A stretch of 49,842 nucleotides of DNA, the filler included, from Fervidicoccaceae archaeon (GTDB lineage: Archaea; Thermoproteota; Thermoprotei_A; Sulfolobales; Fervidicoccaceae), in assembly GCA_038734945.1 (NCBI GenBank). It is 5 parts of 5 records of this genome, joined end to end, with 100 filler letters (N's around TTAATTAATTAA, not from the genome) between each part and the next. Parts side by side here need not be neighbours in the genome. Positions count along the whole stretch, not along the records: positions 17,959 to 28,922 come from JAVYOA010000005.1; 4 more parts are not named here. One strand, written 5' to 3'. Each line of letters begins with the position of its first letter. Position 1 is the stretch's first letter. Shown here piece by piece: positions 21,001-24,000 of this stretch. The position numbers are program-made.

Positions 21001-24000
21001 CGTGATAGAGCTAAAATACATGTCTCCATGATTTCAGTTTGTTTTTTCTGTGTGTAAATTTCTTTAATTAACACATACAGAGATGTTACGAGTGAGACTA
21101 ACGAGACGATCATGTATTTAACCGAGACTAAAACAGGTGACCGCATGGCTACGGATATCGTAACCGTAATCGAATACTTGATAGGCGGAGCTGTCGGGAG
21201 CTTCATAATTGCCGAAATCATGAACTACTTCAACAATAGGTCGGCGGATCAGACCTTCGTTAATCTAGGTAAGGAGATGGCGGAGACCACCACGCTGGGA
21301 GTGCAAGCACTTCAAGACATATCAACCATGGCTATCTCCTCACTGGTAGGCGTCTCAGGCGTTAATGACGTAAACAATCTCGTTAAAAAGAAGGTTGAGG
21401 AACAAAAAGCTAGCTAAACACTAGATCATTTTTGTTTTTTCTTAATTCATGGATCTCGGGTTTATCGCTATCATTATTTCAATTCTGTCAATTTCATTTG
21501 ACATAATTTTTACAATAGAAGCGAAGAAAGCACTAGATGCTCTTTCCTTTATAGTTCAACAGAATGACGAAGATGATGAAAACCGGGCGTATATGTAATG
21601 TCAAAACTTCAAATACTAAAAGAAGTAATTCGTTTTTTAAAAAATAATGCTTTGTATTTTTTAGTGTTTGGTGACGCTGGTGCTATTCTCCTTCTGTATC
21701 TGCTGATTAAGCATCTTCGTCAATCTCGTGAAAGTGATAACGCATCTAACTAACTCGTCGATCTGTTGACCCTTATCGAACCGTTTAACGCTTTTGGGCT
21801 TTACGGGAACGGGTGGAAGCGTTGAGTAATGAACTAGACGTCTATCTTGCTCTCGTTCTGTGTTTTCAAAACATTGATCTATGACCTCTCCTGTCGATGT
21901 ATCAATCAGAAACCCGCCGTCACACACTGTCATTAGTACAACCCTCTGTTATCTTTCTAACTAGTTCTTGAACCTTTTGATTGGGATACGTTTCGATCTT
22001 TTTGATTGTATCCAGTATAAGGTCACACTCGTTACGATGAGTCAGAAGAAGGTAGCCCGCCAACAAATCCGCTACAACTGAAATTAATGCTGGTTGTTCC
22101 ATCATGTACTGTGCCAGTTCGTCTATTAGGTCATACACATCATCCGCTACTGTCATTAATCTCGCCTACTATTTTATCTACTATCTTTAACAATTTCTTA
22201 ACTTCTTGCAAAAGCTCGATTATGTCGTCGATCTTATCTATGTCAGATCCCATTTTATCGCCTCAGTGACATGTTGGAACTTGAACTTTAATTCATCTGG
22301 ATTTAAGTAGTCTTTCAAATTGGAAAAGTGGTTAAGTTCGTTGTACATTTTCTTAACGTCGTGATGTTTATCCTCTAAGTTCACTAATGTGTCTACAAAG
22401 CTGTAAGGATCTACTTCGTTGTGGAAAAAATTAAGTCTAGACCTTACGTCACGATATGATGCTTTAATAGGCACACCTAGATCGTATAATTGACTGAGTA
22501 AATGAAACTCGTGAGCGTCTAGGTAGATAGCTGGTGTGTTACATGACGCTGATTCAATGAGGGGAAGATAAGGAGACTCTGAATGTGACATAGCCAACAG
22601 GTAGCGAGCCGAACAAAGGAGCTTAAAGTACTGTTCATCGGGCGGTGTACCGTATAGGTATTGCCATCGCCCGGTATGGATAACATGATAACCCAATTGC
22701 TCCGCTACATGTCCCCAGTAATGACCTTTCCTGTCATAGTCCCGCTCCGAAATGCCGGCAATGAATAAGTGACTCTGATGAGGCTGTTCAGGTAACTCGG
22801 GGACAATGTGAGGATGGTAATAAACATATTTGCGCATTATGTGATGATTCCACAAAGACGGCGTTAAGATGATTACACCCTTATCTAACATTTTCTTTAC
22901 TCTGTCCACGTTAAAATTCAATGTAGCGGTATCACATACCGCAATGTTAACCTTACCGGGATAAATTTTCATTTCCTGAATTCTGCTAAAGGTAGTATAA
23001 TAAACGTGAATGTCCGCATTAGGATTGTTCTCACTGCACTCTAGTCCTATCTGCTTACAGATCTGTAACTGTCTGTTTATCAAGTAGCGATAACTTCCCG
23101 CCTTCATCCACGTACTGAATGATATCATAACATGTCATCACGTTACTAATTTATAACTCTTGCTAAATCATGTCATTACTACTAGACGCTGACGTTGTTC
23201 TTCTGATGATAAATCTAATCTCTGCTCTTTACACTCCGTTATCTTCTAGATTCTCGTTGAACTTTAAGACCGTTGCACTTCTAGCTTTCATTGCTCTCGT
23301 TGATGTTGTTATCATAAAGCTAGTGGGTGCTTAACGTGAAAATTGACGAAGTTCTAGAACTCATAGGTAAGGCTGTGCTGTCTAGGGAAACGGTTGAAGC
23401 GAAGGCTAAGCTTTGCGATTACATCACAGTCATTAACTTTATGCAAAAGAATTATCAATACTGTAGTTACGATGATGATTGTAAAACGTTTTCATGTAGA
23501 TTAGATAATTTCATCATAATGGCACATTACGATCGTGATAAGCTAAAGATAAGCGCACACTTCACGGTAAAAGTTTAAATACCTCTTTTATCCATTTTCA
23601 TTTATGGCAAAACAAATAGTCGTTTCGGATTCGGCGGAGCTTGTTTTTAAGCTCTTCGAAAGATACGAAGGTAAGAAGTGGGTGGACTATTTTGACAAAA
23701 CCATAAACATCGATGACTATCTTAAGTATTGGGAAGATACAACTATCTTTAGCACCGTGTTATTTAGACATCTATCTGGGCTTGAGCCTCTAGATTCTAT
23801 AGATAAGATCGCTGACTTAGTCACGCTAGTAGTTATCAATGACGATCCTGTAAATTCGTTATGGGACTGTGAACGCTTTGGTATTAACGTACCGTTTTAC
23901 ATCATGATGAGGGAACACTTGCTATCAATTGTTAAAAAGTTTAAGAATGCCAAAGTTGTGACTTACACTGAATATCTTAAGGGGGACTTTGCATGATAGT

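Follow-up and report, generated by a model that had tools for sequence, protein, structure and literature searches.

The 101-aa ORF at positions 21112–21417 (+) of the window, by which we mean the whole 49,842-nucleotide stretch of DNA analysed, encodes, judging by its sequence, a true homolog of the pyramid-forming proteins (PVAPs) P98 of the rudivirus SIRV2 and C92 of STIV. We consider it likely that this protein is a functional, very divergent PVAP of a ~22-kb ampullavirus-like linear dsDNA virus infecting Sulfolobaceae, probably Metallosphaera. This reading is based on homology, size, a hydrophobic N-terminus, genomic context, absence of the gene in the other ampullaviruses examined, and a CRISPR link to Metallosphaera.

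A divergent member of the pyramid-protein family

By BLASTP, the candidate aligns over nearly its full length with SIRV2 P98 (30% identity over 77 aa without gaps, E 5e-16) and STIV C92 (34% over 77 aa, E 6e-15). It matches phrog_8367 "pyramid forming protein" at E 1.3e-13, residues 23–100 covering profile positions 14–91 of 96. In a search of 1.84 billion representatives, only four matches were obtained at E ≤ 0.001, and those outside the candidate's own cluster are PVAPs or PVAP-like; the nearest named relative is the SSRV1 PVAP (38%, E 3.8e-11), which tblastn aligned at 36.1% identity over residues 23–83. Searching the phage collection by tblastn retrieved 26 records, every one of them from a rudivirus or STIV; wherever the matched feature is annotated, its label reads pyramid forming protein or hypothetical protein. 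With each of three independent methods, the E-value lies far below what chance would produce, which argues against a chance ORF. The initial annotation had proposed a P98/C92-type homolog, and these searches agree with it: the phrog_8367 values were obtained again unchanged, and the identities it gave (27% to SIRV1, 33% to SSRV1) were of the right order, now being 30% to P98 and 36–38% to SSRV1. The N-terminal hydrophobic stretch that it placed at residues ~14–37 was also recovered, the peak 19-residue window being residues 16–34 (mean Kyte–Doolittle 1.99, versus 1.97 for P98 and 2.31 for C92).

PVAPs are proteins of ~10 kDa (92–98 aa) with one N-terminal transmembrane helix and no signal peptide. 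The candidate measures 101 aa as called and 90 aa when read from Met12, and has one such helix as judged by hydropathy. The AlphaFold2 model is all-helical (residues 5–30, 37–68, and 73–89) at low confidence (mean pLDDT 55), so that the helices 37–68 and 73–89 of the C-terminal part are tentative. The ORF as called corresponds to positions 3154–3456 of its contig (C5). It is real, with translation probably starting at Met12 (ATG 21145) and yielding 90 aa: Met12 aligns with Met1 of P98 and C92, and P0005 (NCBI/UniRef; 10 contigs, the longest of 22,257 bp) has exactly the sequence of this 90-aa form. The sequence upstream of this ATG is probably a promoter or leader rather than coding. It contains TATTTAA (21115–21121, centre 27 nt upstream of the ATG) and GGTGA (21136–21140, 4 nt upstream), both putative start signals. 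The features of the gene are:

21112..21144, plus strand: N-terminal extension by 11 codons in the called ORF, without counterpart in eight other PVAPs
21145..21417, plus strand: PVAP-family gene, likely true coding sequence, 90 aa from Met12 (homology; Met12 alignment)
21429..21443, plus strand: T-rich tract 3' of the stop codon, putative terminator (sequence inspection)

The candidate's cluster comprises eight members of 90–101 aa, 92–98% identical among those aligned and each found on as many as 18 contigs, which indicates that the gene is kept intact. Identity to other PVAPs is 24–38%. Six columns do not vary among the 30 family members compared, of which the candidate is one: N30, F38, T49, D75, V76, and K83. 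In a tree, which is a quick one only, all 123 other family members group apart from the candidate, which has a long branch to itself, and as far as these comparisons reach no branch of the PVAP family diverges more than its cluster. On such a branch, the function of the protein could have shifted.

No family was found for the protein in Pfam and no sequence match in the PDB; used alone as query, it retrieved nothing from the viral contig or genome contig collections, and the PVAP alignment varies too much to serve as a scanning pattern. In the ESM Atlas, the candidate and a member of the ORF71 family discussed below match only unnamed clusters, with uninformative scores. Matches to holin in PHROG (E 0.0076 and 0.07) and to OPT and holin in Pfam were discarded, being below cut-off and covering the hydrophobic segment. 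We also rejected a chromosomal ORF (C2:52733–52993; PVAP HMM E 0.035), which is hydrophobic with a charged tail and otherwise unlike PVAPs.

The ampullavirus-like genome and its probable host

The PVAP gene belongs to a plus-strand island bracketed on both sides by homologs of genes of Acidianus bottle-shaped viruses (ABV, ABV2, and ABV3). The relevant features on C5 and on two further contigs, C7 and C8, are:

19993..20526, minus strand: Cas4-like nuclease, ABV ORF163 homolog (tblastn 27–31% to ABV/ABV2/ABV3; phrog_1706, E 2.2e-9)
20551..20811, minus strand: 85-aa membrane ORF, weak ABV ORF112/ABV2 homolog (tblastn to ABV2, E 3.5e-4; phrog_20328, E 1.3e-4)
20832..21005, plus strand: hydrophobic small ORF of 57 aa, upstream, first gene of the island
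21449..21753, plus strand: two small ORFs (49 and 51 aa) with a hydrophobic stretch each, downstream in the island
21661..21933, minus strand: ABV ORF105 homolog, directly right of the island (39–54%, E ~1e-15; phrog_18951, E 4e-17)
22238..23128, minus strand: glycosyltransferase, ABV ORF315 homolog (~30%, E 1e-30; phrog_4356, E 5e-26)
24744..25536, minus strand: ABV ORF150b and ORF107b homologs (43–51%, E 1e-36 to 1e-40; phrog_21550), the ORF107b-like gene matching ABV2 at E 2.3e-5
25583..26978, plus strand: ABV ORF167 and ORF174 homologs (40–44%, E 1e-29 to 1e-37; phrogs 19713 and 21625)
within 25583..26978, plus strand: 87-aa ORF (phrog_19673)
38135..39867, plus strand, C7: ABV ORF166 and ORF346 homologs (tblastn; phrogs 20060 and 21709)
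47266..49077, minus strand, C8: protein-primed PolB (PF03175, E 6.8e-34; phrog_1907, E 7e-60; 24% to ABV polymerases)

Family searches gave no match for the 57-aa ORF or for the 49- and 51-aa ORFs. The initial annotation had counted five ABV-shared genes around the PVAP and, on five of 28 genes, called the contig ampullavirus-like. The sharing stands and the count does not: nine C5 ORFs have homologs in ABV, ABV2, or ABV3 by tblastn, and PHROG adds two. The assignment to an ampullavirus-like virus is now supported by these nine homologs, the ORF166/ORF346-like pair of C7, and the PolB gene of C8, whose link to C5 is indirect. The Ampullaviridae core genes present are ORF105, 150b, 167, 174, 166, and 346, the Cas4-like gene, and the glycosyltransferase gene. 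Thymidylate kinase was not found on C5, C7, or C8.

One virus lineage appears to be represented by C5, C7, and C8, their joining into one genome being indirect. In three sequencing runs, the same ones as cover the PVAP gene, C5 runs on into C7. The overlap is only 79% identical, which indicates that more than one strain is present. C5:1–195 and C8:546–740 are 95% identical, and a contig extends from this segment into C8. The three contigs sum to 22,610 bp (~22.6 kb), compared with 22.6 kb for ABV2 and 23.8 kb for ABV. Ampullaviridae have bottle-shaped, enveloped virions and linear dsDNA genomes of ~22–28 kb bounded by inverted terminal repeats. A comparison of the contig ends gave no inverted repeat, and C5 itself carries neither a polymerase gene nor a terminal repeat; the 195-bp segment common to C5 and C8 may belong to such a repeat. 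Contig C6 is cellular.

Identity to ABV proteins is low (24–54%), about two-thirds of the C5 ORFs have no ABV homolog, and the polymerase gene lies apart from the Cas4-like gene, to which it is adjacent in ABV, ABV2, and ABV3. C5 might accordingly belong to a recombinant, or to another family sharing some ABV genes. We regard this as very unlikely, as the common genes are ampullavirus-specific PHROGs whose order is largely kept (ORF163, ORF105, ORF150b, ORF107b, ORF167, and ORF174, with ORF166 and ORF346 on C7), C8 encodes a protein-primed PolB, and the summed length fits ABV and ABV2. Moreover, the PVAP is the only rudivirus or turrivirus gene found on C5, C7, and C8.

Metagenome assembly in the presence of several strains, as reflected in the 79% and 95% overlaps, can also produce chimeras, and the first 34 nt of C8 are chromosomal sequence. 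However, Logan contigs from three runs, each belonging to a different study, cover 20423–21462 or 20720–21462, that is, the gene and its left neighbours, with three to six differences, and ABV homologs lie on both sides. That mis-assembly fused the PVAP gene with ampullavirus DNA, or that the similarity is spurious, is hardly credible. In one run, the contig diverges from C5 left of 21482, implying that variants of the plus-strand island exist. One metatranscriptome had no reads on C5 and is uninformative on expression.

The metagenome-assembled genome (MAG) holding the three contigs is Fervidicoccaceae-like. No CRISPR arrays were found in it, and it therefore provides no evidence on the host. 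Conversely, four spacers of Metallosphaera cuprina Ar-4 match the viral contigs, three of them at neighbouring positions in one array (C8, C5, and C7):

24443..24480, unstranded: C5 protospacer (31/38, exact core of 25)
41550..41589, unstranded: C7 protospacer (38/40), spacer in the same array as the C5 spacer
43547..43590, unstranded: C7 protospacer (37/44), spacer in a second array
44409..44446, unstranded: C8 protospacer (36/38), spacer adjoining the C5-matching one

These matches suggest that the host is most likely a member of the Sulfolobaceae, probably Metallosphaera, and that the binning is wrong, the holding MAG not being the host. Through them the gene can be attributed to a Sulfolobales virus, as are other PVAPs, and attempts to isolate the virus could begin with cultured M. 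cuprina Ar-4 or its relatives. The spacer search also returned four weaker matches (E 6.8e-4 to 7.7e-3). A match of genome G148 to C5 (86% over 43 nt) was rejected as a spacer, as it lies outside any repeat array.

Possible pyramid-type proteins in other ampullaviruses

Whether ABV, ABV2, and ABV3 themselves carry a homolog was a check called for by the initial annotation. None was detected in their genomes by tblastn (best E 2.7) or with a PVAP HMM (best E 0.33), nor by BLAST or HMM in seven metagenome loci and one ampullavirus-like contig of 26.6 kb. The three viruses share with the candidate virus the Cas4-like nuclease, the glycosyltransferase, and PolB, the family-specific ORF105, 150b, 107b, 167, 174, 166, and 346 in similar order, and the size class. 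In ABV and ABV2, ORF247 and a thymidylate kinase gene occupy the plus-strand island that separates the Cas4-like gene from ORF105; in the candidate virus, the same island holds the PVAP and small membrane ORFs instead. ABV3 gp11 (102 aa), followed like the PVAP by two small ORFs, was considered as a PVAP-like protein and rejected (hhalign probability 0.1%).

A conserved protein of 67–82 aa with the layout of PVAPs and borderline profile similarity to them is encoded by ABV (ORF71(in)/ORF103), ABV2 (gp29), ABV3 (gp47), and three to four metagenome loci, G311:C270 being a probable further carrier. Among the other ampullavirus-like genomes examined, all that span the region encode it. The C5 lineage, by contrast, lacks it and has a canonical-type PVAP at a different locus. 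It is tempting, if rather doubtful, to regard pyramid-type proteins as ancient in ampullaviruses and common to them, and not as a one-off import. If the 67–82-aa protein and the PVAP were distant homologs, the "non-lytic" ABV would employ a shortened relative of the PVAP at its host's membrane, and the two forms would be linked by the candidate.

Predicted egress and relation to known pyramid systems

In the available parts of two reviews, a single 10-kDa PVAP is reported to suffice for pyramid formation in archaea, Escherichia coli, and yeast (PMC10791045, PMC4456609). If it acts as P98 and C92 do, the N-terminal helix of the candidate would insert it into the host membrane without a signal peptide, and its helical C-terminal part would self-assemble into a lipid-excluding sheet. 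This sheet would grow into a pyramid piercing the S-layer. Late in infection, the pyramid would open, releasing the assembled virions and killing the cell. The gene itself sits in a variable plus-strand island of an ampullavirus-like genome. Membrane insertion, pyramid formation and symmetry, lytic release, and the bottle-shaped virion are all predictions for this virus, which probably bursts out of its host by what we infer from homology to be pyramid-mediated lysis.

A true PVAP homolog might also have another role at the membrane, such as remodelling of the envelope membrane, a closed structure that does not open, or the exclusion of other viruses, release remaining non-lytic. ABV, the sole cultured ampullavirus, is described as non-lytic (ICTV profile, PMC5882107). 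The long separate branch of the candidate, its 24–38% identity to other PVAPs, and its position amid small hydrophobic ORFs without assigned function are in line with such a role. Furthermore, pyramids stay shut in heterologous hosts, so opening needs more factors, according to the available part of PMC10791045. We nevertheless find another role unlikely. The 77-residue alignment to P98 and C92 is ungapped and the invariant family positions are kept; pyramid formation is the family's one known activity in every tested case covered by the available parts of PMC10791045 and PMC4456609, the former adding that the enveloped viruses SEV1 and SIFV also leave via pyramids.

The presence of the PVAP gene in a relative of the bottle-shaped viruses brings an unrelated virus lineage to the users of a one-protein egress device, shows that the gene travels as a cassette among Sulfolobales viruses, and leads to the prediction that lytic versus non-lytic release can vary inside one virus family. 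As the most divergent PVAP available, the candidate is a useful natural variant for identifying residues that matter in pyramid assembly. The reviews consulted, PMC10791045 and PMC4456609 among them, connect PVAP homologs of the P98/C92 type with rudiviruses and turriviruses, and so does a 2025 survey of 4264 ICTV genomes (PMC12596118). Our literature searches found no paper connecting this family with ampullaviruses.

Like the candidate, SIRV2 P98 and the SSRV1 PVAP are ~10-kDa proteins whose N-terminal helix is hydrophobic and whose C-terminal part, helical and polar, ends in a K/Q-rich tail. The rudiviral proteins belong to rod-shaped viruses with hairpin genome ends, whereas the candidate belongs to an ampullavirus-like genome with a protein-primed PolB. 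STIV C92 has the same layout, and STIV (Turriviridae), unlike the candidate's virus, is icosahedral with a circular genome; in the quick tree, C92 groups with rudiviral and metagenomic PVAPs and the candidate falls outside. As described in the available part of PMC10791045, SIFV gp43 and the presumed pyramid protein of SEV1, both associated with six-sided pyramids, come from enveloped Sulfolobales viruses. The action predicted for the candidate is the same as theirs. However, by the same account these two proteins are non-homologous to P98 and C92, to which the candidate is homologous.

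The C5 gene and its ampullavirus neighbors

The initial annotation identified a homolog of the virus-associated pyramid proteins (PVAPs) SIRV2 P98 and STIV C92 on contig C5, and PHROG, phmmer, tblastn, BLASTP and invariant alignment columns bear this out.

21112-21417, plus strand: candidate PVAP ORF, 101 aa as called

Its PHROG match was exactly reproduced: residues 23-100 align with positions 14-91 of the 96-position profile phrog_8367, "pyramid forming protein" (E 1.3e-13). Among 1.84 billion representatives, phmmer retrieved only four matches at E ≤ 0.001: its own cluster (96%), the "putative pyramid forming protein" of rudivirus SSRV1 (E 3.8e-11, 38%), and two unnamed proteins. 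All 26 records matched by tblastn in the phage collection are rudiviruses or STIV; where the matched feature is annotated, it is called either a hypothetical or a pyramid forming protein. By BLASTP, identity is 30% over 77 aa with P98 (ungapped, E 5e-16) and 34% over 77 aa with C92 (E 6e-15). Across 30 aligned family members, the candidate among them, six columns are invariant. No Pfam family and no PDB chain matched it by sequence. Judged from these sequence comparisons, the candidate is a PVAP homolog.

The expected N-terminal hydrophobic stretch is present, peaking at residues 16-34 of the 101-aa form in a 19-residue window (1.99; P98, 1.97). The AlphaFold2 model is all helical (5-30, 37-68, and 73-89 in 90-aa numbering). 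As its mean pLDDT is only 55, we take it as consistent with the published layout, in which C-terminal helices follow a transmembrane domain at the N-terminus (PMC10791045, as given in its Fig. 2 legend), and nothing more. Residues 1-11 of the 101-aa form have no counterpart in the other aligned PVAPs. Upstream of the Met12 ATG (21145) lie GGTGA (21136-21140) and TATTTAA (21115-21121, centred 27 nt upstream), which we infer to be a Shine-Dalgarno motif and a TATA box, respectively. The 90-aa form starting at Met12 is identical letter for letter to an NCBI/UniRef protein found on 10 contigs, the longest of 22,257 bp.

A profile built from nine PVAPs retained 206 of 2737 candidate proteins at E ≤ 0.001. 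The best 120 of these 206 show 24-35% identity to the candidate; those with names come from rudiviruses, STIV, the chromosome of Sulfolobus acidocaldarius (one copy), and a MAG bin (one copy). A quick maximum-likelihood tree (132 rows, 98 columns), with little resolved elsewhere, puts the candidate and eight near-identical relatives on a separate long branch (SH-aLRT 100) that excludes the remaining 123 sequences. A PVAP-like ORF (HMM E 2.6e-5) was also seen on a 2.1-kb contig of another MAG of the order (L010, G071:C38:429-761).

Local tblastn of the C5 ORFs with the genomes of the Acidianus bottle-shaped viruses ABV, ABV2, and ABV3 identified nine homologs:

19993-20526, minus strand: Cas4-like, ABV ORF163 homolog (27-31% identity)
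20551-20811, minus strand: ABV ORF112 homolog (weak)
21661-21933, minus strand: ABV ORF105 homolog (39-54% identity)
22238-23128, minus strand: glycosyltransferase, ABV ORF315 homolog (about 30% identity)
24744-25214, minus strand: ABV ORF150b homolog (43-51% identity)
25195-25536, minus strand: ABV ORF107b homolog (weak)
25583-25990, plus strand: ABV ORF167 homolog (about 40% identity)
26212-26718, plus strand: ABV ORF174 homolog (about 43% identity)
28204-28368, plus strand: homolog of an ABV3 ORF (weak)

Two further small C5 ORFs have matches by PHROG. The PVAP gene is therefore flanked on both sides by ampullavirus genes on a single contig, and the five ABV-shared genes originally counted become nine by tblastn and two more by PHROG.

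A probable single virus on three contigs and its likely host

The window-to-genome mapping was verified, and the coordinates reported for the finding were already window coordinates. The window comprises five contigs with N spacers between them:

1-17858: C4 (part)
17959-28922: C5, 10,964 bp, viral, bearing the candidate PVAP
29023-37996: C6, cellular
38097-44015: C7, viral
44116-49842: C8, viral

C6 is cellular and not viral: it encodes two archaeal flagellins, a pair of IS200/IS605 transposases, a DUF2208 protein, and an M20 peptidase. A stretch of 127 bases is identical between C6 and the end of C3, and C6 also matches part of C2 at 83% identity. C7 carries an ORF166/ORF346-like pair (tblastn, PHROG) and C8 a protein-primed family B polymerase (PF03175, E 6.8e-34). 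Identity is 95% between C5:1-195 and C8:546-740, and 79% where the final 269 bp of C5 align with the initial 268 bp of C7. Logan contigs from three public sequencing runs of three studies follow C5 to 28715 and then C7:63-92; in two of the three (X1 and X12), C5 is followed up to 18153 and then C8:741-770. The summed length of C5, C7, and C8 is 22,610 bp, the genome size of ABV2. From these end overlaps, continuations, and summed size we conclude that C5, C7, and C8 are pieces of one virus lineage and that the sample contains more than one of its strains. The segment common to C5 and C8 may be part of a terminal repeat. Over its first 34 nt (44116-44149), C8 is 97% identical to chromosomal coding sequence (C2:237515-237548), and a C-rich stretch comes next. 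An assembly artefact at the end of the contig is the probable cause; an integration junction is the alternative.

Among the matches listed, a 3.3-kb stretch around the PVAP gene is present in at least 20 runs from 10 studies, at least 17 of these runs containing half or more of its sampled words. Logan pieces covering 20423-21462 (X1, X2) and 20720-21462 (X12) include the whole PVAP gene and its left neighbors with three to six differences; none of the matches listed spans 21462-21575. One X2 contig matching C5 from 21482 rightwards diverges to the left into sequence absent from the window, and the PVAP island therefore varies between strains. Outside hot-spring metagenomes, between 35% and 76% of the sampled words of window 19900-23200 also occur in runs labelled as seawater metagenome (polyA RNA-Seq), as manure metagenome, or with several coded organism names, which points to mislabelling or to carry-over from one library to another.

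The assembly in which these contigs are binned (1.34 Mb, 99.95% complete) has an RpoB 90% identical to that of a "Fervidicoccaceae archaeon" MAG, and no CRISPR array was found in it. Among 325 genomes of the same order, C5 has a 32-nt match in Metallosphaera cuprina Ar-4 (G024, identified by exact protein matches); it falls within one spacer of a large array that counts 47 repeats in a 3-kb locus and 115 in a 10-kb stretch. Four of the 207 spacers in two arrays of this strain match the viral contigs (spacer positions are those of G024):

993984-994021: target C8, 36/38
994047-994084, the next spacer: target C5, 31/38 with an exact core of 25
994175-994214, two spacers beyond: target C7, 38/40
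spacer in the second array: target C7, 37/44

Neighboring spacers against all three contigs argue that these are one virus and that a Metallosphaera lineage has encountered it. Related fragments also turn up in the bins of MAGs from two other families, namely a 3-kb viral contig (L051, G069:C169:113-3091) 85% identical to C5:7977-10958 and one in G311, so binning is no guide to the host here. We regard the presence of C5, C7, and C8 in a Fervidicoccaceae-like MAG as bin contamination and not as evidence of a Fervidicoccaceae virus.

Other ampullaviruses: no PVAP detected, and a protein of similar layout

The initial annotation could not check whether ABV, ABV2, or ABV3 encodes a PVAP; tblastn of the candidate now gave nothing better than E 2.7. 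Run on six-frame translations of these genomes and of the whole assembly, the nine-PVAP HMM found the C5 gene alone (E 1.7e-38), with no second PVAP (next-best E values 0.035 for a chromosomal ORF and 0.33 for ABV3). PVAP was likewise absent from a 26.6-kb ampullavirus-like contig of a Sulfolobaceae MAG sharing 10 ORFs with the window (G311:C270, loci L057 and L058; best E 0.16) and from the parts covered of seven ampullavirus-like JGI metagenome loci (e.g., 17.9 of the 25.5 kb of one contig; best E 0.03). IMG/VR yielded only ABV, ABV2, and ABV3 for the gene family searched. By BLAST and HMM searches, then, no PVAP is detectable in other ampullaviruses.

Weak nonmember matches of the PVAP HMM repeatedly corresponded to one conserved ampullavirus protein of 67-82 aa. 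Like PVAP, this ORF71(in)-type protein has an N-terminal hydrophobic helix and a polar helical tail, with a Q/K-rich end. Its loci are:

L001:12626-12838
L002:12520-12720
L003:20198-20428
L071:5867-6112
L072:7975-8214
L074:8287-8523
L057:5178-5390 (probable member, on G311:C270)

Its alignment (A5: ABV ORF71(in)/ORF103, ABV2 gp29, ABV3 gp47, and three metagenome loci) was compared with the PVAP alignment (A2) by hhalign, giving a probability of 44.5% (E 2.3e-4, 69 columns), and 66% in a local rerun (score 29.2). None of 150 column shuffles, with the hydrophobic block kept or not, reached this score (maxima 19.4 and 20.8), which is only about 2 sd above the mean of 48 circular tail shifts (mean 20.6, sd 4.4, maximum 28.3). 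Conversely, among 24,548 six-frame segments the top nonmember of the ORF71(in)-family HMM was the candidate PVAP ORF (E 0.27) and the fourth another PVAP, both nonsignificant. Each of the two HMMs places members of the other family at the top of its nonmembers, always at nonsignificant E values. The profile similarity is borderline.

No family member was found in C5, C7, or C8; G311:C270 probably carries one (hhalign 82%). Since C5, C7, and C8 lack the ORF71(in)-type protein and the other ampullaviruses lack PVAP, the two are mutually exclusive in the genomes examined. This fits either a distant common origin or a functional replacement; we consider distant homology unlikely.

Predicted egress and comparison with known viruses

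According to PMC10791045 and PMC4456609, P98 or C92 alone is enough for seven-sided pyramids to form in membranes of archaea, bacteria, and yeast: the N-terminal helix lies in the membrane, the C-terminal part forms a protein sheet, and the pyramids go through the S-layer and open late in infection. Its homology to P98/C92 makes it likely that the candidate works in the same way: its N-terminal helix would sit in the membrane and its C-terminal part would form the sheet of a pyramid crossing the S-layer and opening late. The original observation is thus confirmed and its interpretation supported, with refinements.

Published reviews, PMC10791045 and PMC4456609 among them, associate P98/C92-type proteins with rudiviruses and turriviruses; for lipothrixviruses and SEV1 they describe other pyramid proteins (PMC10791045). 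Snyder et al. 2011 (PMC3265310) described c92-like clades whose viral origin was unknown and detected no c92 homolog in about 48 other archaeal viruses then sequenced. A 2025 survey of 4264 ICTV genomes (PMC12596118) places PVAP in Tokiviricetes and Tectiliviricetes only and does not contain the word "ampulla." Supplements aside, we found no paper linking ampullaviruses with PVAP (pyramid, P98, C92); the identical NCBI protein lies on a 22-kb contig, so the sequence is public even if this link is not in print.

ABV is non-lytic, its virions leaving without apparent lysis (ICTV profile, PMC5882107). Where ABV and ABV2 have a plus-strand island between their Cas4-like gene and ORF105, it contains ORF247 and a thymidylate kinase gene, whereas the corresponding island of C5 holds a 57-aa membrane ORF, the PVAP gene, and two further small ORFs.
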